Below are positions 36,001 through 63,000 of a DNA stretch of 64,000 bases, one piece after another (the first letter of the stretch is position 1; every line of letters starts with the position of its first letter). This DNA is from Candidatus Omnitrophota bacterium (GTDB lineage: Bacteria > Omnitrophota > Gorgyraeia > Zapsychrales > Aceulaceae): assembly GCA_029564765.1 (NCBI GenBank), contig JAKQPK010000029.1:119-64118 (forward strand), read 5' to 3'. Position numbers and translations under genes: made by a program. Below the pieces are notes generated by a model. The model had not been told where the DNA came from, made no database searches, and saw only the letters and a program-made list of their open reading frames with translations.

Positions 36001-39000
36001 TAAAGAGCTAAGAATGTTGTCCTCGTTCATGCCGTCCTTGAAAAGAGAACTTCGCAAACAAGGGGATCTGCGCTTTGAATGGAACCATGTGCGTTTTAGC
36101 GGATTGCCTTTCAATCGCAAGAACCGCAGTCAGAATAAAGACGCTGCTGATCAGCAAGACAACCATCCTTTCCTTATGTATTCTTTCCCGGGGAGTCTTG
36201 TTGGCAATCCGCTGTTCTTGATCTTTGTTGACCGTAAGGATAGCAGCCGATTTATCGTGTTGGGCCGGGATGAGGAAAAATTTTATGTTCTCAACGACAA
36301 AGGTATCAAGAAATATTTAAAAATAAAAGCTTCCGATGGCCATGGCCGCCACGAAGCAACAGCGGATCTAAGACAGGCTAAAGAATTCCGTGATTTTATT
36401 GGCCTTTCATCGCGCAACAGGATCCTTAAAGATCAATCCAGGGCCTCAGAGAAAAGGAATCATTTTTATGTCGGGTTCTTGGAAAAAGATTTGAGGGTCT
36501 GTTTTACCTCAAAGATCCCCTTGAATGTTGAAGTCGTCAAAGAGCGCGGACGTGTTCGTCGCTTGCTTATTTCTGACCGTCAAGGGCGAGAGATCACCCA
36601 GGTTGCTGCTTTGGGAGATCGACAGTTCTTTGTTAAACACCTTGTTGATAAGAACAGCAAGCCCATTATTTTCACCGTTTATGGCAAGGCTGTCTTGATG
36701 AATGCCGTGTTAACGCGTATCAAAGATATTATCAATCCTTGCCAAGAAATGGCGATCATGCGCCAGCAGGTTTTTCCTTCGTCAAAGCCAGGCTCTCAAT
36801 TTTGCCCTATGCGGATCGTTGAGAAGAACGGCAAGACGAAGGTTATTTTCGAGAAAAAAGAAAAAGGTAAGGGCGCGCAAAATAAGAATATTTCTTCAAG
36901 CCTTGATTTGTCGCTTGATTCTTTCATAATACATATAAGCCTTTCTCAAAGATCAGACTGCCCTGTTAAAAGTTTAAAAGCTATCTTACCTCGTCCGTGG
37001 CTGGTGGGGGGTAGCTCTTTTAACAGGGCAGTTTCTTCTAGTCTTTCGCGCGCGTCATCCAACAACGTAAAGAACAGCAAGCAAGAAAGAACTCTGCCCA
37101 AAGATTCCATGAGCCCGCACAATATCGTTGATCTTCTGGGTATGCCAAAATATATCGGAGCTCAAGGAAAAGGGTCTTATGTAGTCTTAGATTACATGAA
37201 CGCGATCGTTAAGCTGGTCGGCTCTCTTGAGGATGCTCAAAAGCTCATTGGCGAGAAATTATTAGAGAGATTGTCTCAGTCGGAGCAAGGGCTCATTAGC
37301 GCCCAAGGCCTGCAATATTTGGAAAAAGTCGCGCTGGATATTTATGTTCCTCTGGCGATCCGGCTCGGACTTGAACCATTGGCGCAGGAACTTCGTGATC
37401 GCGTTTTTCGAGCTATTGACCCGGATCAATATCAAGAAACAGCTCGGCAAATGCAGGAAGCGACCGGGATGGATGCTGGTCAACGTAAGGCCTTTTTGGA
37501 TACTATTAGCGACCGCGTTGTAAGCAAATTGCGCAGTACCGCTGGCATTGTGATCGTCAATGAAGAGCATCGCGTCAAAGGTATTTACGCCTCAAGCCAA
37601 AAGATCGGACGCAAGGGCAAGAAAGGCAAGCAATACACTTGCATTAACGATCTCGAAGATCTTCTAGGCATCCATCTGATCGTTGACAGTGAAGAAAGTT
37701 TTTGGAATACGGTCGGACAGCTCAGAGGCTGGGCTTATAATTTTAAAGATATTAAAGGCGAGATCTTAGAAGATCAGACAGAACTGAAGAGTATTTATAA
37801 AGGAGACAATTATAACGCCCATCATTTTGGGGTCCGTATCCCTGTGGACGCTGGAGCGCAGAAGCGCTTTGTGATCCTTGAGATCAAAGTATTCAGCAAA
37901 AGCGAATATGACGCTTTCAAATACGGCAATGCCGCTGTCTGGATCTGGGAAGCTAAGAAAAGAAACCCTAGCCAGCGATTTGACCTTGATGGGCTTGTTT
38001 ACGTGAGCGAAAATGCGAAAGAAAGTTTTTCTTCTTTGCTTTCGTTTTTAAACAATTGGATATATGTTTTCTTGTATCAAGAACTGCCTTCAGGGGAAAC
38101 CGTTCTTCAACCTGTGCGCATGAAGCAGGGAGCCATTGTCGCTGATTTTCTAGCTGCGCAGTCAAAGGAAGACAAGCAATGTATCCATAGTGAACAGTAC
38201 CGACGTTTTTATAAAAAACCTTTTTCTTTGCAGATCGCTCGCAGCTATCGTCCACACGGCAAAGACGAGCGCGACCTTGGAGAGGCATTGTTCAACGCGG
38301 ATATCGTGCGTATCAGCACGCGCTATGCGGAGATGACCGTGCCTTTGATGCAGCATATAATGGCCCGGGCGCGATATTTTAAGACTATTAGCTTCTTACA
38401 ATCAGAACCTCGAAAGGCTGACAAGAAAGGCAATGATCTTAGTCCTAATGTTGAAGAATTTTTTAAGGAGATCGGAGGAACAAGCTTTGAAGCATTCTTA
38501 AGATATCACACGCTGACGGTTGCTCAGGCCAATGCGCTTCTCTCCAATAGCGTAATGCGTGTCCGTCTTGATCAAAGAGAGTCCGTTGTGCCTGGGGAAG
38601 AGACGATCAACATGAAGACCGTTATTTTTCAGTCTCCTTCTGGCCAGGCAAGAGAATCTTTTGTTTCCTTGCGCATCGAGATCGCTCAAGATCGCATAGG
38701 GTTCATGCGGGACATCCTTGAGCATATTTCTGCTTTTGGTGCTGTTATTGCTCAAGATCGATCCACACAAAAAGTTGTTCACATCGAATTAGTTCAAGTT
38801 GATCCCCAAGACCTTGATCAGCTATTTTCTTCGTTAAGTGATATTCAATTTCAGGATTTTGTCGCTGTGGAGCAAGTTCAATATCGGCCAGGCCATGTTT
38901 CTGTTCTCGTTTTGTCGGAGCAAAAAGGCTTTCGTTATAGGGCGCTTAAACTTCTTATTTTGCAACGTTTATCCCGGCTTAGCGTTAACTTTCAAGAAGC

Positions 39001-42000
39001 CTTGGGCTCTCAAACAACCATGGATCAGACTGGATGGTTGTTCTCGTATTCTGTCGATATTCCGCTGGAATTAGGGAACGCGATCATTAAGGAGAGCTTA
39101 GAAAATCTTTTGTTTGAGGATCTTAGCTTTACACCCGCAGAGGTCGCTATCGAGGTCACATCGTCCAGCCTTGATATCAAGCGCGTGTTCGATGAGAAAT
39201 TAAGCGCGATCTACACGACAACCAAGCCAGTTGTCGTGGATATCTCTCTGGAAGCTTTTTTGCCCGAATTAGATGACCGGGCTTGCCGTGCTTTGGGAGC
39301 GGGTGGGCTTGGATTTTTAACCGGAGAAACATGGGGAGCGTATAGCGAACTTAATAATATTTTGGCTTTTGGTGTTATGCCGCTTTACGATCTTGATAAG
39401 CAAGATCAGCAGATCGATTGGACGAGCGAGCGCAATATCCATCCTGTTATTCTGGAGAATGGAAATCCGCTTGTTATTAACGTTGTGTTTAATTCTATGA
39501 TCTATAGCGCGTCGATCTTTTGGGTCAACCGCAGAGGCACTCTTGTTTTTCTCATCCGCTGTCCAGAGATCTTTTCACGGTTATATCGCGGCGGGGATGA
39601 GCAAACGAGATATTATGGATTTTTAGCGCGTAGTTTTGTCGAATTAATGAAGCGTTTGAAGATCGCGCCCGCGCTCACTCGACTCAATGAGCCTCAACTA
39701 GTGTTTGTGGCAACAGCCATGGAAAATGATCGCGCTTGGTATCGAGATAATGGCAATGGCCACCACAGTCTTTTTGAAAAGACAAAGATCGTTATGACAA
39801 CGCATACGCCTGAAGCCGCGGCTCTTCCTTACTGGAATCGTGGTCATATTTGCCATGTGGTGGGTGAAGACCTGGTGCGATGGGAGATCGTCTTAGGTGG
39901 AAAATATGGAAATGTTGTCAATGCCGCGATCGGTTTAGCTCGTTTAGCGGATGTCATTAATGGTGTTGCGCAAGAGCATGCCGAAGTCACAAAGATCGCT
40001 GTATTGCCGGAGTTTAAAGATAAGATCGTTGGCATCGTCAATGGATCTGACCCATGGCTATGGGCTTGCGATGATCTGCGTGCACTGTTGGAACAAAAAG
40101 GCAGAGAAGACATTACTGGTGAGGATCTCTTTGCTCTTCGCCATGCGCAAAAAGAACCTTTGAATCAATACTTGGAGAAGAATTTTGGATTCTCTTTTTC
40201 TGATCCTTCAAAGCCTCTTATTGGGCTCATTCGCCGTTTAGTGGACTATAAAGAGCAAGGCATTTTGATCCCGAACTGGCAGCAGGAGTGGGATAAATTT
40301 TTGCATAAAAAGTATGCTGCCTGGATCACAGGCGATAGGGATCGTTTTTATGAAACTCCTTGGGACGCAGAAGTTCCGCTCAAGAAAGGATTGGCAGCGA
40401 ATCTTTTGGTCGGCGGAGATACTTATTACGACAACGGTGCTATCTGGGTGTCTTTATTCAAGGAAATGGCACAGGATCCTGAGCTAAAGGGTAAATTTTT
40501 ATTTGTGGAAAAAAGCGGCATTGAGATCATGAAAAAGGTTATTAACGCCACCGATGTATGGGTCAGCATGCCGCGTTGCACGCGTGAAGCCTGCGGCACC
40601 AGCGATCAGCGGGCGGCGCTTACAGGCGGATATAATATCGCGACCGCGACCGGAGGCCCTCTGGAATACATCATTCATGGAGTGAATGGATGGCTTATGG
40701 ATCCTTTCGCAGGATGGGATCTGGCGCGCGTGGTTCGAGGATTTGATTTTAAGGATCCATGGTTCGTCGGTGAATTTCAGCGGCAAGCCGCTATTCTTCT
40801 GGGCCGTTATCTTCAAGAGGCTATGGACCGTTATTATCGATATACAGAGCAAGGTGATCGCGCTTGGGTGCAAGGCCTTAAAGATTCTATGGATATTGCT
40901 TATGAAAAAGTTTCTATTCATGTCATGGCGCGCAAATACGAGCTTTTGTTTTTGAGTACTTTAAGCGGCAGAGGGGCTGAAGGCTTTAAGCAGGATATGC
41001 TGAACGTAGGTTCTTCGAACATTTCTCTTGCCGTGCGTACGCTCAAGAATTTATTTGGTATAACGATCGACTTGCAAAAACAGACCGTTAACGGTATGAC
41101 TATCAAAGATTTTCTTTTTAATCATGAGCTTTTCTGTGACTGCGCTGAGGCGGGCGAATACAAAAAGCAAGATGAGCAAAATTGGTACCTTACTTTATTG
41201 CATGACTATAACCTCGCGCGCATGTCTGTTGCGAAAGCTAAAAAATATATTTTAGCTACTGCTGAAAAGCTTGACTTAAAGGATGAAACGCAGAAAAAAC
41301 TTGATGGTTGCACAACGAAAAAGGGACAATTGTGGCATCTTTATAAATGGGCGGCGGCTGAGCAATGTTTCACAAGCCGCAAGCGCCAGCGTCAGATGAA
41401 AAAAGAATTGCTCTTTGCCAGGATCGATGTTCGCGATATCAAGCTTGAGCATCTTCCATTGTTTGTTGTTGATCGCAACGGGTATTTTCTTCAGAGTCCC
41501 GCGATGTGGCGCTGGATGACACAGCCGCAACAAGCTCCACCGGAAGAATATTTTTATGCCCGCAAGACCTCCCTTTTTCAGTATTCCCCCAAGCAGCCTC
41601 AACAACTAACACTTAAATTCCCAAGCTCTTCCGCGATCCTTGTCAAGGTCGAACATATTGCTTCCATTTGGAAATATCTTGTGGAATCGAACGCATTATC
41701 CGGCCTGTTGGCACAGTACGGACAAGGCGCGACAACGAAAAACAGCCGGAAGGCGTCTTTTAAAAAAGATCTCATGGCTCTCATCCAAGGCTATGCCACG
41801 TTGGAGCCTGAGGCTCAGGAATGCGCGCGAGAGATCACAAGGCTTTATACGGAAGATGGCAAGGTCGTTGTTGTCTACGGTCGTTATCCAAACGCATTTT
41901 TAGTGCGTATTGCGCGTATTGATTTTGTGGATTACATGACCGACGTTGCTGCAACGACATCTTTTTTCAGCCGTGATATTTCAGCTCGGGTTGATATTAT

Positions 42001-45000
42001 TCGCGATCAAAGAGAGGTTCAGAGCATTGAGCAGGAGCTTTCGGTATACGGTCAGTATCCTTATTTATATGCTTTCATGCGAAGTTTTGCGGGGTATGAT
42101 ATTTTTGATATCGAAGAAAAGATGCGACAGGCGCGTCGCGTTTATCAGATGCCTGGCACATCGGAAAAATCACGCAAAGAGATCCTTCGTTTGTTCGTTG
42201 CTCTTTTAGCTAAAGATAATATGTGGCAGATCCAGCAAAAAGCCCAGGGGATCTTAAACCATATTTTTAGCTTGCGGCCGTCAGAATTTCCATCCGCAGT
42301 TGATGTTCAGATCGTTTGCCCAGGGCAGGCAATTGACATTGAGCCTGTCGTGATCAATATTGGCTTTGATCCTTTTCGCGAAAAAAGAAAGCTCAAAGCT
42401 TTACGCGCCCAATTAGTCATTTATCAATCCAGCAATGATCGCTATGCGCATGTTGATCTCAAGGTCACAGCGCATGCGGATCATCAGGTCAGGCTCGATG
42501 TCGAGGACCGATTCCAGATCGTTGCTGACAAAGGTTATGTTCATGTAAGCGTTCGTTTAGCTCGTGGACGTAGTCAGACGTTACGATATATCGCTTTGCC
42601 GCAAGCCAATCGCACGTTCATTGTTCAGCCGGATATCTCGGGGAAGAAAATTTATCAGCTTTGGCCTAACTATGTGAACGTTTATCATAATGAAGATGGA
42701 AGCTCTCATCACCAGGGGAGCGTTGAGCGCGGCAGAGACGGCCGACCTGCCTGCGGACATTTTCAAATGGTCGAAGCTCTTTTGCCTCAGCTTAAGGCGA
42801 AAGGTTATAGCCATGTGTATGTGATGGGCGCTTATCAGCTGGAGCGTCCGGAGAATATTCAAGGCCAGGCTGGACCTGATGCATCACTGTTCTCGCCTTA
42901 CAGCTGGCGCGTAAGCCGCGAGGCGGGCGGGGAAGAAGCGTTTCGTTCAATGGTGACAAAAGCTAATGAGCTTGGGTTAGGCATTTTGGTCGATGTGATT
43001 CCGCATTTAAATCAAAACTCTCATGAGCTTCCTGAGTGGGCGACTGTCAAGGCTTATGGCCCAAATGGCCAGATCGTGCGCAGACTTGCCACGGATGGCG
43101 GTGTTAATCATGAGGACGGCAGCCCGGTGGAGTGGCATGACTCGGTGGCTCTTAATTTCCGGGATAAACGCGTTTTGGATGCCTTTGCGGCGCTGATCCT
43201 CAAATTAGCTGGGATGGGAGTTGCTGGTATCCGCGGCGATGTTTTTCATAATTATGGTAACGCGTTACCAGTATCAGAAAATCTTCAAGGGCGAGAAAAA
43301 GTTTTTGGCTATGTGACAAGCTGGCAGCGCGCGGATAGCGGCGGATTTAAGATCGTCAATCAATGGCGCAACGACCAGGCCAATCCTTTGCTCACGCATT
43401 TGGTTGCTCAGACCACCCAGCAGTACCCGCAGTTCATCTTTATTGGCGAGAACTACAGTCGCTATGAACAGTTGATCAAATCTGGCATTATCCCGATGAA
43501 TTCTGGGACTCATGACGATTTGGAAAAAGTTATCGTTAAGGACGAACCTGCTAAGCATATCTTGAATGGTCATTTCTATTGGTTGTTCAATATGTTGCCT
43601 TTTGGCGCTCAACTGGTTACTGCCTTAGAGACGCATGATTATTATCGCATTATGGATAGGTGGCAAAGTTACGGTCCACATAAGGTCAAAGCGGCTCTGT
43701 GGGCATGGCTGGCGACGATCAAGGGCGCTCTTTTGGTGTATAACGGCCAAGAAAAAGGAGAGGTCCACCGCATCCGTATTGATAACTGGAGTGAGCATAA
43801 TTATGAAGAGGCGGACCGTCAACGTTATTATGCCTTGAAAGAGTTTGAAAGGGTCAATCGCGTCACCTATGAGGATTATTGGCAGCGATTGTTCAGTTTT
43901 TACCAAGAGAACAGAGAGCTTTATAGCCGCCAAGCCAAGACCTATCTTTTTAATGTATCCCATGATCGTATTTTAGCCTTTGCGCGCTATACCAACGATC
44001 GAAATGCTATTTTCGTTATTAACACCAGCTGGCATTTAGCGCGTGTGACGATCAACTTAGCGGATATCTTTCAGGATCTAGGGATCAAGGATAGCGCCAG
44101 CAGGATCTATCGCGTTTCTGATATCGAGAGCGGTGAAGAAGAAACGTCTTCTGGTCACGGCCTTTTTGTTCATGGCATTGATGTGCGCCTGAAAGCTTAT
44201 GATGTGGCTGTTCTCAGGCTTGAGGATATCAGTGATCAGCCTGGGGCTGAAGAAAGTTTGATCAAGGATTCTTTCGCGCGCTATGAACAACAGCCTTTTT
44301 CTTATCGCACTCAGCATAATTATGCTTCGCGCTGGATGCAGCATGCTCTGAACACAAAGAACAGGGAGATGTTCGTGCAACGCTTTGCCTTTTTGGCCAA
44401 GCTGGTTGATACGGATGACCGTTATAAAGACCTTTGGCCATGTGATCTGACCATGATGATGCATGAGCTGACCGACGAAAGAACAGATGTCCGAGATTTT
44501 TCAAAAACAGTGTTGGCGAGCATTGTCGCCGCCCAACAAGATGAGAAGATCTGCGATGTAGCGGCCAAGGTTTTGCGCTGGATCGATATCGGTATCATTG
44601 TCGACATCTCTCCTGAGGTTGCGCCTTTTTCTAAGGGTGGCGGCTTAGCAAACGTTCCAGGGCAAAAGGCTGAAGAGTTCGTCCAGTCCGGCCTTAAGGT
44701 TTATATCATAAGCCCATTATATTCTTTTAGGGAAGATGAGGCGACTTTAGAGAGGACCTATGTTAAGGACGAAACGATCAGAAAATTCGATATTCGTTAC
44801 GTGAACGTTGTTCCACAGGTCTATATGGGTCGCCATGGATCTGTTCCAGCCGCTGTCGCGTATACGCGCAAAGGTGGCGTGAACTATCTTTTCTTGGATA
44901 ATCCGAACTTTTCAGATTCACTTTATGGCCAGCTACGTGGCAACACGACCGACAGATCTCAGCGCGTCACCAAGGAACATGAACAACTGCGATCGATCTT

Positions 45001-48000
45001 CCTTTCCCTTGGGGCTTTAGAAGCGATTAAGCAGATCGATGTCCATCCTTCCTTTATTGTGGGTAATGATTGGATGTGCGCTCCATTGATGGCGCATTTG
45101 AATTGTGATGCCTCTTTGTACCGTCACGACCCGCATTTTAAGAACACACAAACGATCTTCTTCGTTCATAACAATGGCCAAGATTATCAATTTAAACTTG
45201 CCCACGATCAGAATGGCGTAGAACTTTTAGATAATTTAGGATTGCCCAGAACGGATCACGCTTGGTTTCTAGATCCACATCATCCGGAATTAATGAATTT
45301 TACCGCAGCAGCCATCCGTCATGCCCGCTTTGTCGGGACCGTGAGCCCGGGCCAAATGGAAGATTTCTTAGGATCTGACAACAAGGGCGGCGGTGAGGGA
45401 TTGTGCCATTTATTTCATGAGAAAAATGACCAGGGAAGATTGTTCGCCATCACCAACGGACTTCCGTTGGAAGTTCGCCAAAAAGGTTGGCTAGGATTTT
45501 CTTTCAAGGATGTTGACCGCAGTGACCGCGTCGCTGTCAAAAGGGCTTTAGATGAAATTAAAGCTCTCCAGAAAGAGGCGCGCCAAAAGATCGCAACTGA
45601 ACATCCTGATTTCTTTCCATTTTCAAACGGCACTTCGCCTTACTTGACTGATGATGACCATCTTGTCGTCATGATGGTTACGCGCGTCACAGAGCAAAAG
45701 GGGGTTCATTATGTAGCGTCTTTCGTACGCAGGGTTATTCATTCAGGAAAAAAAGTTGTCTTTTTATTCGTTGGCGCGGGAGATCAGCGTCTCATGGATA
45801 CCCTAACAGAGGTCGCGAGGGAATTTCCAGGGCGTGTTGGCTATCCAGCCAAGTTCGTTTCGGATCAGCAACCGATCTATTATCATATGTATCTTGCTGG
45901 AGACATTTACTTAGCTTTCTCGACTTGGGAGCCGGGTGGAATTTCCCCGATGGAAGCGCTGGCGTTTATGACCGCGGTCTTAGCTTCTGATAAGCAGGGC
46001 CACAAATCAACGATCAGATCCCTTTATATAGAAGCCCTAAAAGATATTTTAGGAGTTTTTGCAGATGAACAAGGTGTGAATGGCGCGCGTTTTCCGATCG
46101 ATGACGGAAATTTTGACAATACAGTTGATAATGCTTATCAAGCATTTGAGACGCTGTTTGCAGCTTGGGAAGATCGTTTTGTCGATAGCAAGTGGGATGC
46201 GATCCTTGAAAACGCCTTTTTCTCTGACAATAGCTGGGAGAGGGTTGTCGGAGACTTTGAAGCGCTATTCAAGAATATCCGTTTTCTGGGGAGGGTATCG
46301 TCATCAATTGAAGATCGCACAAGATTGTTCTTTGATCTGCAGATGCTCAAAGACGCTTTTGATACACAGAAGATCATACAATATATCCCAGAATTCAAGG
46401 CCCTGAGTAAGAATGATTTTCGGAAAAGAGGTCATTTTAGATTCCTGTCTGTTTATAAGCATATCTATCGGGCTCTTTTTTCAGAACCAGAACGCGTGAC
46501 TGCAAGATCAAGACACGATTTTCGTCCTGAGGCTGTTATCAGGGCTGCCTTGGTTTTTCACGATATTGGCGTTGGTGAGCCTAGCAATACAGAATATGCC
46601 TATCTGGCATCCTGGAGCCCAGAGAGGGAAGAAGCGATCGCAAGACAGATGATGCCTTTCGTGGATCCACGCAGCGAGATCGCGCGCCAGCACGTTCAGT
46701 ACCTTAAGCATCCTTACATTTCTGTCGCTATCGCTGATAAATATTTAGAAAGTTTTGGGTTTTCACAACCTGAGATCATCGTTATTCGTTTTTTGATCTG
46801 GTATCATTCAGCTCTTTCAGAGTTTGTCTTGCATGGCAAACTCAAAGACCTTACTTCTTTAGATCAATTTTTGGAGGAGGCTTACGGACTTTCTGGTTGG
46901 ATGGACATTGACTTTAATGATTTGATCGACATGCTTTTGATCGTGCAGTTGCGTGATTCCTACGCGGTTGTCTCCCGCAAAGAAGATGGGATGAATGAAG
47001 CCACTGAAGAAAAGATCCGACAGCTGGCTTCTTTGATCAAAAAAGGATCTGAGGCAAGAATCCATTTAACGCAATTTTTGGACAATATCTCGCGTGAGCG
47101 CCAGAATATTTACGCTCAATATTCTTATCTGATCGACGTCATCAAGCGTAAAGCTGCGCAACAAGGACAAGACCGTATCAGCGATGAACGACTGGCAGAG
47201 ATCTTTTCCATTCTTTATCGCCTTCACGCTTTTCAGAGAAGGCGCCAACGCAAAGAAGAAGGTATCTGGCTTCCAGAGTTTTCTTACAAGCTTTATATTG
47301 AGCATGTTATTGATGTCACTACAAAGCTTGTGTTCCATTATGGTCTGACGGATGAAATATCGATCTTGGAAGCGCTATTTCATGATGTTAAGGAAGACAC
47401 GCGGTTTTCAGATACGCTGTTGCGGATCATTTTCCATCCTCATGGAAAAGGGATCGTGACCGGATTGAATGTTCTCGACAAGACGAGAAAATTTGATTTT
47501 AGCGTACTTAGTTTTTCTTCGCTGAAGAATTCTTTAAAGGAGCAGAGAGATCTCGTTTATATGGCCATGATCTTTGTTGCCGGAGAGCGAAGAGAGCAGT
47601 GCATCAAATCATGTGATGTTTTTTCTAATTTTGAGACGCTCGGCGGATTTGAGACCCCGGAAGACAAGCTTAAACAACTGAAGAAGTTTAGAACATTGCT
47701 GATGTTTCTTGTCGAAGCCTCATACTTAACTGAACAAGAAAAGATCTTGATGCTCCGCCAACACCATGTTTATATCCAGGCTGCTGAAAAAAAGGAAGTC
47801 AGCGAGCTGGTCATAAGCTTTCTGAAGAATTACACAGATGATGTGCGGTCTTATGGCAAGCGCATCCGTAACGCGAAGATTGACCTTAGCGCCCTGCACA
47901 TTTTAACAGCCCTGTATCAAATAACCACCCCCAAAGAGATACTTGTCTCAGAGACAGTTTCTGACTTGGCCCTGTTGGATCCTAAAATGCGTATTTTAGA

Positions 48001-54000: not shown

Positions 54001-57000
54001 TCAGCTTGATAGCGAAGTCGCTTCGTATGACATGCTGAAAGTCCTGCTGTCCTGGAAGCTTGAGGAAGAGGCTTATCAAGCGCGTCAGGTCAAAGGGATC
54101 GAGCGTCTTGTTCAAGATACGAAGTTAAGGACGCTAACCTCTCTTTATCTGCAAGGGCCAGAGTCCATGGGGGAAGCCGCTCGGCTTCACGAACAAAATC
54201 AAAGAATTTCTAAGATATATCCCCAATTTCTGCACTCTCGCTTTAAAACAAAAATAGCCATTTTTGATTGGGATGGAACGTTATCGCGTATTCGAGAAGG
54301 ATGGGAGTGGATCCTGTCTCCTTTAGTCGCGGCGATCATTTCTGGAGCCCAATGCCCCATGACGTTTTGGGATGAGGTCGTTCGCGCTGTTTTAAATGAT
54401 GAGCGACGATATGATGCCACGCGCCTGGATGGCGTTGAGGACTTGATCAAGAAAGGTATTCTACGCCAAGAAGATATGGAGTGGGCTTATCAGATAGTCG
54501 AACGGACAAAAGGTTTTACGAACCGGGAACAGATCCTTTTAGCCTACGATGAAGCCATGGCCCGCAATATCAAGATCGAGAATTTTCAATGGGTCCTAGA
54601 TTATTGCCAAGATAAAAGCGGTGCGGCTCCTCCATCGGCAGCTGAAGCCCTGGTCATATTCTTTCTTGATCTAGTTTATCGTTTGCGTAACGACCGCCTT
54701 GCCACCCTTAAAGAAACTAACCTTTCGCCCGCCAAATACCTTTTTCCAAAGACAACCGCTTTCTTAAGCCGCTTACAAGATGAAAATGTTGTGTGCTATA
54801 TCGTGACAGGCTCTGATAAGCGAGGCGTTGAGGAGGAAGTGGCCTTGTTGGGCTTGCGACCTCAGGTCAAGGATATCGTTGGTTTTTCTCTTGAAGGAGG
54901 GAAGGGAGAAAGCAAGGAAGAGATCATGCAGGCTTTAGTGAATCAAGCCATCAAGGAGCGCGTGATCGGGCATACCCAAGAAGTTTTGGTCGTTGGTGAT
55001 GGATGGGCTGAATTGCAGGCGGGTCACAAGATAGGATGCTTAACGGTCGCGATTCGCTCTCGCGAGAATACAGATTCTTTTTCTTTTATAGAGGAGGCCA
55101 AGCCTTGTTTTACGATCAATATTCAGACCGATGGTGTACAGCCTTATGATCTGGCTCTTCGTGAAGCTAGAGATATCTTCGAAGCGCTTCAAAAAGGGAA
55201 GCCAGAACAATGCGCGTGGCTTCCTGATCCGATCCTTTCTTTATCATTAACCAGCAAGGTAGAAGAAAGTTATGCTAGCTTTTTGACTCCCCAGGCGACC
55301 GACGCGGTTTTGCCTCAGGTTTTGCGTCATTTTCCGTTCTCAGAGAACGAGAGTGTTCGCATGGAAACTGTTTATCAGGTATCCGCCCTTAATAACGAAG
55401 ATGTTAACGCGCACGCGCATGATCTTATTCTTTTTAAGATTGGTCATGAAAAATGGATAAAACATTTCGCGGAAATCCTTTCACATCGCATCCGTCAGAT
55501 GATCCCAGATCTCAGCGGGTGGATCTTGGCTTTTCGCAAGTCAACTCCGGAGCACGCCACACAACGACTGGGAGACTATATCGCGGCTAGCTTGGGCGCG
55601 GAGGTGGTTTATTTAGAGCAGAAAAAATGGCCTGTCGGATATGTCTCTATGTCCGCCCAAGAGCGCTATAAGGCTGTGGAGAACTCGACCGTGGTTTTAT
55701 CACCTGAAAAGGTCGCAGGAAAGAAAGTGATCATTATTGATGATGTGATCCATAGCGGCGGCGTGTTAAAAGATTTGGCGCAGACGCTTATAATCCTTAA
55801 AGCGAAAGAAGTTTTTGCCTTTGTACTTTTTGATTCAGGAGACGTTAGTTTTGAGGTTGGCATCTATCCTTTCTTGCAGGCGCATCCTTCCTTGCTTAAA
55901 GAGGCGATCATTGAAAATCAAGGGAGGCTTTCCTTGGGAGGGATCAAGTATTTGATGCAGTTCATCCGCGATTCACGGACAGCTTTTCTACAGGCAACAG
56001 AAGGTCTTTCCCGAGATGTTCGCTATGAGCTTGTCAAACGCAGCTTGCAATATCTTGACATTGTTCCTCGTCAATATGAAAAAGATCTGCTGCACGCGCT
56101 TCTTTCAATCTGGGCTGCGGACATTTATCAAGGACTTTCACTATCAAATAAATTAGAGGTTCTGACAAGCTTGAAAGATGTTGTGTCTCGTGGGATCTTA
56201 GCCAACGGCGAGCGGACATTATTTGTAAGCGCGCAAGAATGGGAGTCTTCTTCAAAAGCGGTCTTCTATGCGTATGTCAAAGGGTATGACTTCCTAGTTT
56301 TTAGGGACAGACGCGCAATGAGCTCTGACGCGACCGAAGAAGCCCTAGAGGCAGCCCGCCTTTTCCATGTTTTTTTAGCAAGTCCTTATTATACAACGTT
56401 GCCGCGTTCCATTTATGCTAAGCAGGAAAACCAAGGGTTCGCGATCGCGAAAGAACAAAAGGATTTTCTAAGCTTTTTAGCTGAGGCCATGAAAAATATC
56501 CGTAATGCGCATAAGGCGAGGATCCTTGAGCTGTCTTTGGGAGCTGCTGAGAACGATGCTCCATCCGCCATACTGAAGGCGTCCAAGGACTATGCGCAGC
56601 AGTGCGCCAAGATCTTTCAGGATGTTTGTGAAAGTTTGATCGATTTTTTAAGGAAGAAAAATATCGCTATTTCCAAGAATGATCTTGCGATCGCCTTTGT
56701 TGGATCCTTAGCTCGCGGCGAGGTGACTGAAGCTTCTGATATTGATTTTGATATTATCGCTAAAGATGAAGAGACCGCTAAGATCATTGAAGGGTCTGTT
56801 GCGTTAGCTCTTACGCATTTTTTAAGGCTGGCCGGATTTGATGTTGGCCCCTCGGATGAATTATATCAGCGCCATATCAAAACCCGTTACGAGCTTAAGA
56901 CGCATAAATTATTTGATGAGCGCATGCGCGCTGAAGACCGCCCAAGCACGCTCATCCGTTTTTGTGATTACACCTTTGCCTGGGGAAACCCGATGATCTT

Positions 57001-60000
57001 TCACGCGTTTACCAAACGGGGTAAGTCAGAGATCCTTTGTCAGCAGGGACCTTGCGTGCTTATGATCGAGCAGGCTGCTAATGAATATATTGATATTGCT
57101 AAAAACGGGCACGGACGTTTTTCGGGGCGCAATTTTATCGTGGCTTATGACACGTTGCGCCGCATTTCCTTTGACGTTAAATGGATCATTAATCTTGTCG
57201 AAATTTCTTTGAAAGAGTTCGTGATCCGTAATCTTCCTTTATTATCGACCGATAAGCATTTTTCTTGGGATAGCTTGCCCAAACAAAAGAGCGCTTTGCT
57301 GACATTTTTTAAAGAACATCATTTTCTCAACGGTATTGATGATCAGGAGATAGAGAAAGTTAAGAACTCCTATGCATGGTTCTTGGAGTATCGACAGCAA
57401 AGAGCCGCGCGGGGAGAACTGAATACAGCTTGCCCGTTTGAACCAGGATTTATCGATCATTTGAACATCCTCGGGCGATTCATCTTGCGTCACATTATTG
57501 CCCAACGGATTAAGCCCGCGATCATTAAAGAGCACAATATTCCTTTTGTGAGCAATGAACTTGGTCAGCAGATCGGAGTGTATATCGGTCATTTTCCCGA
57601 TGGAGAGATCCATTTGTCCTTAGAAAATCCAGACGATGTTAAGGATAGCCATATAAAGGTCATCCACGCCTTAGAAACGAGCCACGACCTTGTCCAGCTT
57701 GTTCTTTTAGCAGGAGCTTTAAAAACCTATCATGCCAAAGAGCTGACCCTTGTGGTTCCTCAAGAGCCTTCGATGTCCCGGCATAACGGCTATCGATATG
57801 TTTTATATTATTATTTTGACCATGTTATGTATCAGGACGGCAAGGATATCCCTCGGCTAGAAATTTTTGACCGCGCACCGTATACACAGGCTGTCCGTTT
57901 CGAGACTGTTTTGTACCAGCATGGGCGTTTTGGTGAGGACGCGCGGGAAGCCGCGGCACGTATTAACATTGATCATGCCAAGATCGACATCGTGAAGATA
58001 GAGGACAATCCTTTATCGTGGCAAGTTTGTCTGCCTTTTGGGCTTAACGGTAAGCACGTCGCGCTGATCCACAGCACAGAAAACACAGAAGATATTGTTG
58101 AGCTGTGGTTCATCCTCGTTGCCTTGCATCGCGCCAATGTTGGCAGCATTTCCTTGATCAATACGTGCGAGGGATATTCGCGGCAGGATAAAATATTTGA
58201 GCATGGACAGGCTGTAAGCGCGAAAACGATCCTGGACGCAACAGATGGATTTTTAAGCGCTCATGCGGCATTTAATATTCATTATGGTAAACAAGTGGGG
58301 TGGGTCGCTCTCAAAGGGCATGACATCCTGAACTTGAACGCCTTTACGGCTATCGCCCAGACCATGATCGATTGGATCATGAAATCTTTCGCTTGCGCGG
58401 CAGAGCTTGTTCAAGAAACACAACGACATCCCATTCTATTGCTTGGCCCTGATGACGGCTCTTTTCCTTATGTGCAAGAAGCGGTGACGGCGATCAAGCG
58501 ACATTTCAGAAAATGGCACGATATAGACCTTGATCTTTATTGCGGTTACCTCGACAAGGTCCGCAAAAGCGGCACAGAGGTTTCTATTCCTGATTATATT
58601 TTAGGGCCTGACGGCCAACGCATCGAACAAATAAATGGTCTGGATGTATCAGAGTGTTGGTGTTTGATCTTGGATGATGAAACAGCTTATGGGTCAACAT
58701 TGTTCGCGGCTACTTATATGTTGGTGCGAAAACTCCGTTTTTCCTGGCAAAGGATCCTCGCGGGCGTTGTGCGTGCTAAGCTTGTGCGCGGGCTTGAGCC
58801 GTTTCTGACGGGCCTCAAGGCGACAGAGCTGTCTTCAGCCAAAGAGCCTGTGGCGGTATACGTCAATGAACAGAAAGAGCACATGCCTCCTCGCGCTTTA
58901 TTTGCAACAGAATCTGTCGCGCTGCCCAAAGAGTTCCCGGAGGATCAAAAGATCCCGATCGGCCCCTTGGTAAGCTATGCGCTGCGGTATTTGCAAGGCG
59001 ATATTCATGAAGGCGACAGCTCTAACGGTCAGAATTTAATTAGCTCTTCCGTCGATATTGCTGGCGCGTGGGAGCGCGCGCAAAATCAAAGAATAGACGC
59101 TGTTCGATCTGCCGTCGCAACCTTAGAACAGGTTCAGGAAAAAATAATCTCGCATTATCCGCAATTTTTGGCGTTCTGGAGCAAGCTTGACACTTTAGAT
59201 ATTTGGTATGACGCATCGGGATTCATCGAGAATACGTTTGATTATATTCCTTCTGAGCTATCTGAAGAGAACATGATCCTTCGCCGTTCGTTTAACGCTA
59301 TTATTCGGGCAGAACAAGCTTTGACCGTTCTTTTTGAATGCGCGACAGCGGATACCCAGCAACAGCTGTACAACGCCTGCAAGGGAAAAACAATGTTGTA
59401 CTTTCCTGCCAGACTTGTCCAACAAGTACAGCGATCAGGCAAGAAAAGCTCCAGCATCCTTAGAGCTTGTTATCATCCGAAGTGCTTTTCGCTCAAAAGA
59501 TATGTGGAGCCTGTTAGCCAGCATGTTTTTTCTTTTGTGTTTTTCTCAGCGACTTTGTGCGTGATCTTTGATCATTGGCTTGTTCTTGCTTTGAGCCTTA
59601 CCTTGGCGATCAGGAATTACGCTTTTCGTGACACAACAGCGTTCTTTCGCAATCGACATGTTCGGGATCCTTTCCAGGACTTCTACGGGAATGTGGTCGG
59701 TGGCTACATCATTCCTGTTCTGAAAAAGCAAGGACGTTCAGCGAGGATCCACTCCGCGGGGGCTTCTGATTTCAAGGAAGCGATCAGCATTGCGATCATG
59801 CTCCATGAAGATTATCAAAAGGACCCAGGATCCTGGGGAAAGATCAATCCTCTTGAACATATCAAGATCTACGCGACGGAATTTGACCCTATCGTGTTTA
59901 AGCGCGGAAAATCTTTTGTTTATTCTTCTGAACAGATCCGACAAGGATTCTCCTTTAGACAACAAGAGAGAAGCTCTTTTGACCAAAGCAAGATCTTCTG

Positions 60001-63000
60001 CCAGAACGAATATTTTGACGAGATAAAGCGCAAAGATGGGACGATCGCGTATCGGCTCAAGCCTTATATTCGTTCAATGATCAGGATCCGACAGCGTAAT
60101 TTAAAGGACGCGCATCCCCGCGATGTCGATGTTGTTTTCTTTTTGCACACCGCTTATCTGATGGGGCCCTGGACGCTGAAGAGAACGATCAAGAATTTCA
60201 TTGACTCTGTACGTCAAGACAGCATTATTGTGGCTTCGTATGGGCACTGCTTCATCAATCCTTTTAGCTTTTTGATCAAAAAACATTTTATTGGCTATGA
60301 CCAGCGATATGTTTTCTCTTCTCGTAATAGCGTAAATCATTATATTTTCCGTTTCAAAGATCAGAAGCCAAGAGCAGCTTATCGCTTTGGATCCGCTGTT
60401 TATGGTCTAAAAAAAGCATCAAACACCTCCGCAGTTTCTTCCTGTCTTTGGCAGGAATTCAGACAGATCGATCATAAATTAAAGACGGAGGTTGAGGAGC
60501 TTTTATGGCTTCGATACGCTCGTCGACAGCTAGGCAAGGTCAGGACGTTTTATGGTCAGTATATTTTTGTTAGGCCGGGAGCTTGCGCAACATCGGAAGA
60601 GGCCGTCGGTATCCAAGATATTTTAGAGGATCTTCGAAACCAAGGTGATACTCAGGCCAGCTTAAGCAGTGCCCGCCACCCTCAAAAACGTGTGATCGCG
60701 GCAAACCTTGAAAAAGTCATGTCCTATCTTCAGACAAACGACACGCGATCGTTGGTCGAGACCATTGGGAACACCATTGATGTGGTTGACGCCAGAGGAA
60801 AAGAGGTTCGAAAGATCATCAAGAATATTTATGAGCGTCAATTGCCGGGGTTACGTGATCGCTTTATTTACATGAACGATCAATACGGATCTCGCATCAC
60901 GAACATCCTTGCGAAGCTTCATGACGGGGATTATCGGACAGCCTGGCAGTATGTTCAGGGATTTTTGAGCTCTCGAGCGCTCGAAGGGTCTTTTAGTGAA
61001 CCGGATTTGACAGGCATGCGTCAGCTGTTAGGCTACGTGGGGTCGCTGTTAAAGGATGGAAAAGATGTTGATGCCGCGAAAAGAAAGCTTGAAGATTTTC
61101 AGGCAGAGGTACAAATAGCACAAGCCGTTCATGATTTTATGTATAGGCTTAGGACCCTCTATGTTGTCCAGGCCTTAGAGCATAAGGGCCTTGACTGGCA
61201 GCAGGCATTTAATTGTGCTTATGATATTTATCTTAAGGAAAAAGGCCTTATTCGTGGATCGCCCAAAGAAGAGATCTTTCGCCTCGCTGTTTTTCGCCCC
61301 GCCTTTATTCCGTTTATGATTGATCATCCCCAAAAAAAGAACCAGCGCCTTATCAATCCTTTCTTCTTAGCTGTAACGAGTCTGATCCAGATCCAGCGAT
61401 CTTTGTCCTTTGATCTTATGTCACGGCATTTCCAGCGCCGCCATCCAGAAACAGCTTCATTATTATCGCAATTTGCCTCTGAGCATAAGCATGTTTTTAC
61501 GGACCTTAGCTTTAAGGATAGGCGTGCTCTTGTTGGGGCTTTGGCGCGTGATCATCAGTTGATCAAGCAGGATGTCCATATGTTCGTCACGATCGCCATT
61601 CCTCGCAAGAGGCATGAGCAGGATCAATATACGCTTATCTCCAAGATCGTTGCGGTAGCTGAAGAGCAGGAAGCGGAGCTGGCAAGGCGGTCTTCTGCGG
61701 ATTCTCAAAAAAAGGGGCAGGATGCCCAACATGAGCGCGTTGTTCGCATGGCCCAGATCATTGAGAACACCATTTTGGATCACTACATTGACGAATATGA
61801 CCGCGGTCTTTTGTGCGCCGTTGGATATATCAAGAATGACAAAGCTTTTCATAGCAACAAGAAAAGTTTTCAGGAGTTGCTCCCTGTGATCGCTGAGCTC
61901 TGTTGCTTGACGGATCCTCAGAAAGCGATCATCACGATCGCTTTCTTGCCGCAAGACCGCGAGGCGGATGATAGGACGGGGAAGGCAGTTTCCAGCGGGC
62001 TTTCTGATCGCTGCAAGGCGTTTCGTGCCCAGCTCGGATTTCTTCTTGTCGATATGATTAGCGTTATCTTTGCTGTCGGCGCTTTGCTTTCTTATGGGAT
62101 TATGAAAATTTTATTCTTTGGCATGAACACCACTGCAAGAACCATACGCTATGTTAATAGAAAAGGTTTTAAGAATGATTGCCACGTGATCTGGTCTTTT
62201 TGGCTGTTAATGGCGTCGATTGTGATCTTGCCCGATATGCTGGTCTCGTTGATCCTGCAGTCCTTAGGTCTTGCTTATTTTTCGATCGCTCTTGTCAGGC
62301 TTGAAGCCCGAGAAGACCAGAAAAAAGCTGAAGCCAAGCTTTTTGACAATCGTCTTTCACGTCTATGGAATGAGCGCATGCAGAAGGGTGGAGTGTTTAG
62401 ATACCGACTTTCATACCCGCAGTATCGGCGAGTTGGAGATTTTATTCTATTCCTGAATCAGGGAAGGGCACGGGCTGAAGAGGAAAAAAAGCGTTCTTTC
62501 GTTGATTGGAGCCCTGTGTTTGAACCGTTCGGCCGCACAGATAATTTTAACCGGATCTACAGAGATCATCCCCATCAGCGGTTATTCACTCAGAGGATCG
62601 GCTTTCAGCGTTTAGTTGTCAATGTTAACCATACACCTTATTTTTCATGCCATTTCCTTTTGATCCCTTCTCCCAAGAAAAATGTTGAGCAGTTCTTGAT
62701 CCTGTCGAACTTAAAAACTATTTATCGTGTTTTTCGTCTTAGCTATGCGGATAATCTATATTTTGGATTTAACAGCAGAGGCGCCTGGGCTTCTATTAAT
62801 CACCTTCATTTCCATGGCATATATTATCCTTTCGGCGTTTTACCCATAGACCAAGCTGTGAGACAAATTGTCGCAAAGGAACAAAGTGTCCGCATATCAA
62901 AAGTTTCCGACTATCCCTTGCGAGGGCTTATTTTTGAGAGTGCCAAGACCAGGCGGTTGATCAAGGCCACGTATTCATTTATTAGTTTTTTACAAAATCA

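Follow-up and report, generated by a model that had tools for sequence, protein, structure and literature searches.

A run of diverged alarmone, PRPP/nucleotide and alpha-glucan enzyme modules within a giant Omnitrophota gene

Introduction

What do nucleotide-handling enzymes do in the middle of a giant bacterial envelope protein? This question is raised by a stretch of 64,000 nucleotides (nt) from a Candidatus Omnitrophota bacterium (assembly GCA_029564765.1, contig JAKQPK010000029.1, forward strand), which as a whole is referred to as the window. An earlier note had described nt 37540-60330 as a series of nucleotide-signalling and toxin-like modules that may be delivered into a prey or host cell. 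The analysis presented here identifies the region as a run of strongly diverged copies of ordinary alarmone, phosphoribosyl pyrophosphate (PRPP)/nucleotide and alpha-glucan enzymes in one giant gene. Its Rel-like module belongs to a distinct, previously unremarked subfamily of RelA/SpoT homologues (RSH). Our favoured explanation, with a probability of about 0.45, is that the modules are enzymes anchored at the outer face of the producer's membrane, which would work on nucleotides and glucans derived from a host or prey.

Published work on the function of Omnitrophota giant proteins has dealt mainly with adhesion and cell-wall degradation. The window offers two handles on this function. One is a recurrent nucleotide-handling suite (Rel-type synthetase, Mesh1-type hydrolase, PRPP synthetase (Prs), and phosphoribosyltransferase (PRTase) with nucleotidyltransferase (NTase)), in which some motifs are intact. 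The other is the Rel-like module, which ties the window to a clade with secreted-looking free-standing members. Multi-enzyme Omnitrophota giants themselves have already been described; the new element is this clade.

The giant open reading frame

nt 2..64000 (+): piece of a giant Omnitrophota gene; single frame without a stop, open at both ends of the window

Residue i of the encoded protein corresponds to nt 3i-1..3i+1 of the window. Frame +2 (nt 2-64000) contains 0 stops in 21,333 codons, compared to 738-1581 stops in each of the other five frames, which makes the window an internal piece of one giant gene. A tile of 1000 amino acids (aa) from the studied region matches two short NCBI protein fragments with 100% identity; both carry the annotation 'MAG TPA: hypothetical protein, partial [Candidatus Omnitrophota bacterium]'. 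An orthologue with 79% identity is encoded on a 10.2-kb contig of another metagenome-assembled genome (CAZAOD010000050.1, hereafter L001). Its alignment with the window is free of gaps over 1829 codons with a dN/dS of ~0.19, and its open reading frame (ORF) continues open for 4.7 kb past the window end. Where the orthologue covers the window (nt 58.5-64 kb), dN/dS values are 0.07-0.2, indicating purifying selection. Two metagenome scans, with the Rel-like module and the C-terminal part of the Prs module as queries, yielded zero relatives, so that dN/dS is measurable for nt 58.5-64 kb only, via L001. A word-indexed homologue search returned only the two self fragments for the Rel tile and zero matches for the PRTase-NTase block.

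We conclude that the ORF is real and translated, and that it evolves under purifying selection. The possibility of an assembly chimera or a pseudo-ORF was considered and is rejected in view of the 0 stops in 21,333 codons, the identical independent fragments and the gapless orthologue under purifying selection. L001 carries the label 'uncultured Planctomycetales bacterium', while the fragments identical to the window are labelled Candidatus Omnitrophota; one of the two bin labels is probably wrong.

The Rel-like module and its clade

nt 37310..38851 (+): long-RSH-derived module without hydrolase domain; found by profiles, PDB phmmer, AlphaFold/Foldseek and alignment
Parts of this module (+): last HD helices and linker from nt 37310; synthetase (SYN) core nt 37568-37954; TGS-like part nt ~38057-38326; helical part; ACT-like part nt ~38657-38851

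For the module search, the protein was tiled in 1000-aa pieces and compared to Pfam and NCBIfam, and single modules were compared to PDB sequences with phmmer. The RelA/SpoT synthetase fold proposed in the earlier note is present: nt 37325-38146 match TIGR00691 with 63.9 bits (E 9e-18), while Pfam RelA_SpoT yields 22.9 bits on the window copy, which is under the cutoff. Among PDB sequences, long Rel proteins were found at E 3e-6 and small alarmone synthetases (SAS) at E 0.24. An AlphaFold model based on an alignment with eight homologues has a confidence (predicted local distance difference test, pLDDT) of 80-90 across SYN. In Foldseek, this model retrieved Bacillus subtilis Rel (6yxa, E 3e-10), full-length SpoT (7qpr) and Staphylococcus aureus Rel as top matches. 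Small alarmone synthetases ranked lower, the whole range of Rel, SpoT and SAS matches spanning E 3e-10 to 1e-5, and the toxic small alarmone synthetase (toxSAS) CapRel appeared at rank 44 (E 9e-5). Since architecture, PDB phmmer and fold ranking all favour Rel/SpoT, the ancestry of the module is long Rel and not a small alarmone synthetase.

No HD hydrolase domain directly precedes SYN; a Ser-rich low-complexity region is found upstream instead. The window copy has no Pfam match to TGS or ACT. The TGS-like sequence is kept across the clade and modelled with a pLDDT of ~71-77. The ACT domain claimed previously is partly borne out: a beta-alpha-beta-beta-alpha-beta pattern can be recognised in the sequence and in a low-confidence model (pLDDT ~50-60), and Pfam ACT_4 matches 3 of 17 homologues.

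Inspection of the catalytic residues of SYN gave a divided picture. R12524, K12526, K12534, D12553, Y12604, H12608 and E12627 are kept, while A12530, H12558, A12606, K12629, F12631 and V12646 deviate (motifs RxKxxxSxxxK, DxxGxR, YxSxH and the ExQxRT region). The ATP/Mg core is thus largely kept, but residues of the acceptor side are lost.

An exhaustive HMMER search with the Rel-like module revealed 287 relatives. The 23 best non-self hits share 27-35% identity with it, and the HD..ED motif is absent in all of them. All but one of the named members are annotated as Omnitrophota; two members are annotated as Elusimicrobiota. They occur as fragments of very long proteins, as free-standing proteins of ~700-780 aa and as a few complete proteins of 3-4.6 thousand amino acids (kaa). 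One of the free-standing members is MDP8297324.1 from Ca. Orphnella occulta, with 771 aa. Database names of the long fragments include 'glycogen/starch synthase', 'phosphoglycerate kinase', 'HAD', 'GNAT' and 'SAM-dependent methyltransferase'. In a neighbour-joining tree, the clade was split from canonical Rel in 200 of 200 bootstraps, with embedded and free-standing copies interleaved inside it.

The positions of the ATP/Mg core (RxKxxxSxxxK, D, E) are conserved in the 23 clade members as follows: R 22/23, K 23/23, S 21/23, K 23/23, D 23/23 and E 20/23. In contrast, the N, the S of YxSxH and the R of ExQxRT, which are invariant in canonical Rel, are present in 0/23. Judged from these positions, the clade keeps what is predicted to be the ATP-phosphate- and Mg-binding core and is without canonical acceptor-side residues and without a working HD motif.

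Clade members also have other modules in common with the window. Two Prs-like modules are present in P0006, a GT5 module in P0004, and HD, HD_4, RelA_SpoT and HAD matches in P0015. P0074/P0186 carries the entire PRTase-NTase block in the same order as the window, and one clade member has a Fic domain. The free-standing P0010 (778 aa; L002, nt 10001-12337, GCA_964634945.1, contig CAZWMG010000002.1) has a signal-peptide-like start and a degenerate HD. It is surrounded by genes for Fur, Fe-S proteins, CbiA, a methyltransferase, an MBL hydrolase, DUF3108 and a PabB-like protein, which is an ordinary chromosomal setting; no secretion or immunity genes were seen near it.

Alpha-glucan modules

Between the Rel-like and the HD modules, ~7 kb encode three alpha-glucan modules that had been overlooked in the earlier note.

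nt 39269..40951 (+): alpha-glucan-phosphorylase-like GT-B module; TIGR02094, 84.7 bits; PDB 9l6i, E 8e-11
nt 42749..44101 (+): GH13 alpha-amylase family module; regions II GIRGDVFH, III FIGENY and IV ALETHD kept
nt 44597..46282 (+): GT5/GT1 glycogen-synthase-like module; PF08323, 108 bits; glgA, 129.6 bits

The phosphorylase-like module keeps LGAGGLG. In the GT5/GT1 module KGGGL, RVTEQKG and WEPGG are kept, and GNDW replaces HDW.

Nucleotide-handling and other enzyme modules

nt 47222..47671 (+): Mesh1/SpoT-type HD module (alarmone-hydrolase-type); best PDB match Mesh1 3nqw, E 4e-5; spoT_relA profile positions 20-125, E 4e-4
nt 53366..53407 (+): PRPP-loop-like motif VVFIDEALAGGAT; motif level only, no profile support
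nt 54251..55051 (+): HAD phosphatase-type module; PF00702, 48 bits; motifs I DWDGT, II VTGS and IV GDGWAE
nt 55400..57307 (+): block of PRTase, helical region and NTase; collinear with residues 852-1502 of a 3.1-kaa Endomicrobia protein
nt 55568-55843 (+): type-I PRTase; 33.7 bits; VIIIDDVIHSGG
nt 56591-56845 (+): GlnE/GlnD/DrrA-like nucleotidyltransferase core; NTP_transf_2, 26.1 bits against a cutoff of 21; GSLARGEVTEASDIDFD, GSLARGE..SDIDFD
nt 57551..58801 (+): PRPP-synthetase-like module; Pribosyltran_N, 59.5 bits; NF002095, 94.7 bits
nt 59633..60232 (+): CheR-type S-adenosylmethionine (SAM)-methyltransferase-like module; PF01739, 43.3 bits against a cutoff of 27

The HD phosphohydrolase, the HAD hydrolase (DWDGTL), the minimal nucleotidyltransferase and the CheR-like methyltransferase named in the earlier note were all recovered. 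For the HD module, Pfam HD_4 gave no match at E<0.1, and the assignment is supported by NCBIfam, PDB and motifs. It matches the N-terminal HD domains of canonical Rel proteins, and the motifs H...HD..ED and K..D...N are intact (YIEH, LFHDVKEDT, IKSCDVFSN) and in register with Mesh1. The assignment of the motif III Lys in the HAD module is tentative. Up to three PRTase-like PRPP motifs had been proposed; two of them are confirmed by profile as the PRTase and Prs modules, and the third stays at the motif level.

The Prs module consists of two N-type half domains with FPDGE, YSRQD and NIH (D to N in DxH) and a C-domain loop ILDDETAYGST; its C-terminal part shows a dN/dS of 0.07. Motif I of the CheR module is partly degenerate (IHSAGASDFKE), its dN/dS is 0.12-0.15, and phmmer against PDB gave no match for it. 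The HD, HAD, GH13, GT5, PRTase and Prs modules all retain catalytic motifs.

The predicted degenerate P-loop could not be located between nt 37540 and 60330. The pattern G....GK[ST] does not occur in the whole window, and the sequence GPTGTLKTT, at nt ~63390, lies beyond that range. This degenerate Walker A belongs to a weak T2SSE-type ATPase match at nt 63305-63493 (E 2.4e-4, below cutoff).

In one rival explanation, a pseudoenzyme scaffold, most of the modules would be structural or ligand-binding relics that provide bulk, nucleotide/glucan binding or docking with little or no catalysis. The extreme divergence fits such a scaffold (most PDB phmmer E-values are 1e-4 to 1e-6), as do the loss of the pyridoxal phosphate (PLP)-binding Lys in the phosphorylase-like module, the substitutions in the window SYN at several positions that are invariant in canonical Rel, the partly degenerate CheR motif I and Prs loops, and the absence of a canonical Walker A from the whole window. 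However, HD, HAD, GH13 and GT5 have full catalytic motif sets. Moreover, 20-23 of the 23 clade members retain both catalytic carboxylates and the basic ATP-binding motif of SYN, with an overall identity of ~25-35%, and the C-terminal part of Prs is under strong purifying selection. We thus consider a scaffold of relics to be improbable. If the modules are inactive, the window would be a clear case of large-scale pseudoenzyme recruitment.

The toxin hypothesis

If the Rel-like, NTase and PRTase modules were classical toxin cargo, they would be warheads of the toxSAS or polymorphic toxin type, acting by tRNA pyrophosphorylation, (p)ppApp synthesis or AMPylation in a target cell. Several observations are compatible with this: the Mg/ATP core of SYN is intact and its acceptor side altered, one clade member has a Fic domain, and the PRPP-loop is weakly similar to PsyrT and ShosT. 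Exported and injected RSH toxins are also known (for exported ones, see PMC12691689). The closest PDB match of the NTase motif is the Legionella effector DrrA (E 0.013), but the housekeeping proteins GlnD and GlnE match equally well. A structure model of the NTase, based on an alignment of two sequences, was unusable (pLDDT 36).

Proteins of the toxSAS or polymorphic toxin type have the toxic domain as a small protein or at the C-terminus, with an adjacent immunity gene, whereas the module studied here is internal. Neither a C-terminal variable domain nor a pre-toxin or trafficking domain was found. The proposed analogy to small alarmone synthetases and toxSAS gives way to a long-RSH derivative with TGS- and ACT-like parts, for which CapRel reaches no better than rank 44. 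PADLOC yielded no significant defence-system match; the motif-level NTase and PRPP-loop matches it gave do not sustain the analogy of NTase and PRTase to polymorphic toxin and anti-phage systems. No candidate immunity ORF was seen: the other frames of nt 37540-60330 contain no ORF >140 aa. This last point is a weak one, because Sec-exported alarmone synthetases are likewise without immunity genes. The RelE/ParE-like fold suspected at nt 33500-33740 found no Pfam match at E<0.1 and no PDB match at E<10. A conserved module does occupy nt 33518-34177; it recurs in P0004, a fragment of another Omnitrophota giant (residues 3463-3683, 23% identity, E 2e-15), and neither Pfam nor PDB yielded a match for it.

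Because of the internal position, the long-RSH ancestry, the empty PADLOC result, the missing immunity ORF, the anabolic neighbours (GT5, Prs) and an evolution that is conserved rather than diversifying where measurable, the strict toxin reading fails. The classical toxin-plus-immunity form is not supported, and true toxin cargo appears very unlikely. The broader idea that the enzymes act outside the producer cell fares better than this form, in view of the signal-peptide-like starts in the clade and the signal-anchor-like transmembrane (TM) segment described below, and of the exported alarmone synthetases now documented, which have no immunity genes (PMC12691689).

Topology and export

nt 31433..31489 (+): signal-anchor-like hydrophobic segment (KK..RR / FVLTTIVLIAMSVTSLFAQ / AIPQ; aa 10478); start of a ~9.3-kaa stretch without convincing TM helices
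nt 59513..59614 (+): 34-residue hydrophobic segment, a hairpin or one long TM (aa 19838); closes the soluble stretch

A Kyte-Doolittle scan detected 33 hydrophobic segments in the window protein. Together with the single ORF and an FKS-type glucan synthase upstream, they uphold the description of the protein as an envelope giant. The ~9.3-kaa TM-free stretch contains every module except CheR, and the segment at its start has an N-in/C-out look.

All inspected clade members with a genuine N-terminus have a signal-peptide-like (Sec-type) start. P0009, P0010, P0012, P0014, P0017 and P0022 combine a basic n-region with a hydrophobic core and an AxA site. The start of P0186 (3.1 kaa) ends in VIAS|G, and this protein has no other hydrophobic segment; the PRTase-NTase block and the Rel-like module both lie behind its signal-peptide-like start. 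Signal-peptide-like segments are absent from all canonical Rel proteins of this hit list. Directly after the predicted signal-peptidase site, A|(L/F)RP(V/I/T)(A/S)(Y/F/S) is conserved in the five free-standing proteins P0009, P0010, P0012, P0014 and P0017 and is followed by a Ser-rich stretch. This (L/F)RP motif may be a sorting or processing signal. From these N-termini, it appears that the free-standing members of the clade are exported.

The region is an internal, TM-free part of an Omnitrophota giant envelope protein of known type. For membrane side, catalytic activity and substrates of the module string, we infer the following. The enzymes would be tethered outside the producer's membrane and would use nucleotides and glucans to which they gain access at or inside an attached host or prey cell. 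The Rel-like module could be related to exported alarmone synthetases, but tethered and perhaps with another acceptor; the Mesh1-like HD could serve as the matching hydrolase. We favour the outer side because the clade keeps the core, loses the acceptor residues and has free-standing members with signal-peptide-like N-termini. Topology surveys of such giants also predict enzyme-rich parts to be extracellular, with stated doubts (bioRxiv 10.1101/2023.11.21.568195; bioRxiv 10.64898/2026.06.07.730766). The export of alarmone synthetases has been established by experiment, and these enzymes do without an immunity gene (PMC12691689).

A number of observations weigh against an extracellular location or activity. 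ATP, GTP, ADP-glucose, PRPP and SAM are normally not available extracellularly. K/R residues are frequent in the flank before the segment at aa 19838 (6 in 25 residues), which points to the cytoplasmic side and contradicts the N-terminal boundary, and no TM between aa 10478 and aa 19838 reconciles this positive-inside conflict. The signal peptides were judged by eye. TGS and ACT, which are ribosome/tRNA-sensing parts in cytoplasmic Rel, are retained, which is unexplained outside the cell. Compared to the clade consensus, the window SYN has degenerated further (S to A, R to H, Q to K, H to V, Y to W and K to E), and the phosphorylase-like module has Arg instead of the PLP-binding Lys (EACGTSDQR).

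An alternative is a cytoplasmic metabolon or regulator anchored in the membrane, which would link the turnover of glycogen, the supply of PRPP and nucleotides, and the synthesis and hydrolysis of (p)ppGpp to envelope functions such as the glucan synthase. Every module is of cytoplasmic-enzyme descent and needs cytoplasmic substrates, and the K/R-rich flank fits as well. Synthetase-type and hydrolase-type RSH modules occur together, with regulatory TGS and ACT-like parts. In addition, 46% of the long Omnitrophota proteins in the published catalogue belong to the TM-only group, whose domains are interpreted as cytoplasmic (bioRxiv 10.64898/2026.06.07.730766), and West-Roberts et al. doubt some of the extracellular predictions (bioRxiv 10.1101/2023.11.21.568195). 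On the other hand, signal-peptide-like N-termini are found throughout the Rel-like clade, including the 3.1-kaa protein with the PRTase-NTase block and Rel-like module. The TM before the stretch is signal-anchor-like with N-in/C-out appearance, and the SYN core is without canonical acceptor-side residues. We regard a cytoplasmic metabolon as rather unlikely.

Should the modules be both active and extracytoplasmic, as in the favoured explanation, alarmone or PRPP chemistry would be part of the dealings of an ultra-small predator or episymbiont with its hosts. A more far-reaching picture can be drawn, which we regard as speculative and quite unlikely. Omnitrophota and some Elusimicrobiota would possess a dedicated exported, long-Rel-derived RSH branch, both free-standing and in giant surface proteins. 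In the giants, where it is accompanied by a Mesh1-like hydrolase, Prs, PRTase-NTase, a LOG-type nucleosidase and glycogen enzymes, it would be part of a device directed at the host, by which alarmone-like nucleotides are made or destroyed in attached prey and the nucleotides and glycogen of the prey are harvested. The size of the free-standing homologues (~700 aa) suits expression and assay.

Other modules of the giant protein

The FKS-type 1,3-beta-glucan synthase is located at nt 16394-17878 of the same giant ORF (PF02364; 84.5 + 207.9 bits in two tiles) and is flanked by a hydrophobic cluster (nt 14498-19120). This family is mainly familiar from fungi and plants. Further upstream modules are DUF218 (nt 25760-26170, 55.9 bits), five TPR repeats (nt 27209-27721, 136 bits) and an MbnB/TglH/ChrH-like module (nt 29714-30208, 31.5 bits).

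An internal paralogue pair is formed by nt 3920-4852 (aa 1307-1617) and nt 23639-25003 (aa 7880-8334). Both paralogues align to residues 1267-1721 of the giant fragment P0006 with 29-31% identity, indicating ancient internal duplications in the giant protein.

Near the end of the window, nt 62402-63301 are without Pfam match at E<0.1. The sequence ASINHLHFHG at nt ~62830 resembles the HxHxH signature of HIT/GalT-type nucleotidyl transferases. Past the window end, nt ~6750-10100 of L001 encode a LOG/'Lysine_decarbox' SLOG-type nucleotide-processing domain (127 bits), a response-regulator receiver and an HMGL-like domain. The LOG-type domain is one more nucleotide-handling module for the suite.

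Comparison with known systems

The window belongs to a described class of proteins, the 'Archaeovorin'-type giants (West-Roberts et al. 2023, bioRxiv 10.1101/2023.11.21.568195) or 'multi-enzyme metabolic cluster' giants of Omnitrophota (Nielsen & Lui 2026, bioRxiv 10.64898/2026.06.07.730766). Known Omnitrophota giants carry GT5, GT1, methyltransferase, HAD, HD, NUDIX and even glycolytic enzyme domains (same sources). The window agrees with Archaeovorin-type giants in its Omnitrophota origin, an ORF of >21 kaa and many hydrophobic segments, and in its extremely diverged domains, which include GT5 starch-synthase-like, GT1, glycoside hydrolase, methyltransferase, HAD, HD and TPR. The window, being a gene fragment, includes no N-terminus, and no SecA-DEAD, C39/S8 peptidase or NUDIX domain was found in it. 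The main texts of West-Roberts 2023 and Nielsen & Lui 2026 make no mention of RelA/SpoT, ppGpp, PRPP synthetase, phosphoribosyl/PRTase, NTase or CheR. None of the papers covered by the literature search links Omnitrophota with ppGpp.

Like class I Prs and type-I PRTases, the window has the FPDGE, YSRQD, NIH and DD-loop motifs. Compared to class I Prs, the N-type half domain is duplicated, the ribose 5-phosphate loop is altered (DDETAYGST) and scores are far under the curated whole-protein cutoffs. The HD module resembles Mesh1, small alarmone hydrolases and the SpoT HD in that its motifs are in register and its best PDB match is Drosophila Mesh1, but it is embedded and stands apart from the SYN module.

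The Rel-like module resembles long RSH (Rel, RelA, SpoT; TIGR00691) at its start, where the final helices of the HD domain and the linker are present (LDIYVPLAIRLGLEPLAQELRD), in its SYN fold, in a TGS-like beta-grasp (GAIVADFLAAQ...ADIVRIST) and in its ACT-like end. Unlike long RSH, it has no hydrolase domain in front, the Mesh1-like HD being located 2,800 residues downstream. The N, the S of YxSxH and the R of ExQxRT are missing, and the module is embedded in a giant protein.

The SYN fold and a possible non-guanine acceptor are also features of toxSAS and Tas1/Apk1-type toxins (CapRel, FaRel2, Apk1). In contrast to these, the window has no antitoxin or immunity neighbour and no detected delivery domain of the Rhs/PAAR/LXG type, and the protein is not small.

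Exported alarmone synthetases (EAS), such as SaEAS and VpEAS/RelV (Ahmad et al. 2025), are single-domain proteins of the SAS type with a Sec signal peptide or secretion-system domain; they are toxic when kept in the cytoplasm and have no immunity genes (PMC12691689). The EAS survey deliberately ended before large multidomain RSH proteins, and Omnitrophota are unmentioned in it (PMC12691689). The Rel-like clade shares with EAS the RSH synthetase fold, members with Sec-type signal-peptide-like starts and the lack of an adjacent immunity gene. It is distinguishable from EAS by its long-RSH-derived modules with TGS and ACT-like parts and, in the case of the window, by a module without an N-terminus of its own. 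Judged from these comparisons, the clade looks like a long-RSH-derived counterpart of EAS that occurs both free-standing and embedded. If its modules are active and extracytoplasmic, the EAS concept would be extended to a long-RSH-derived form.

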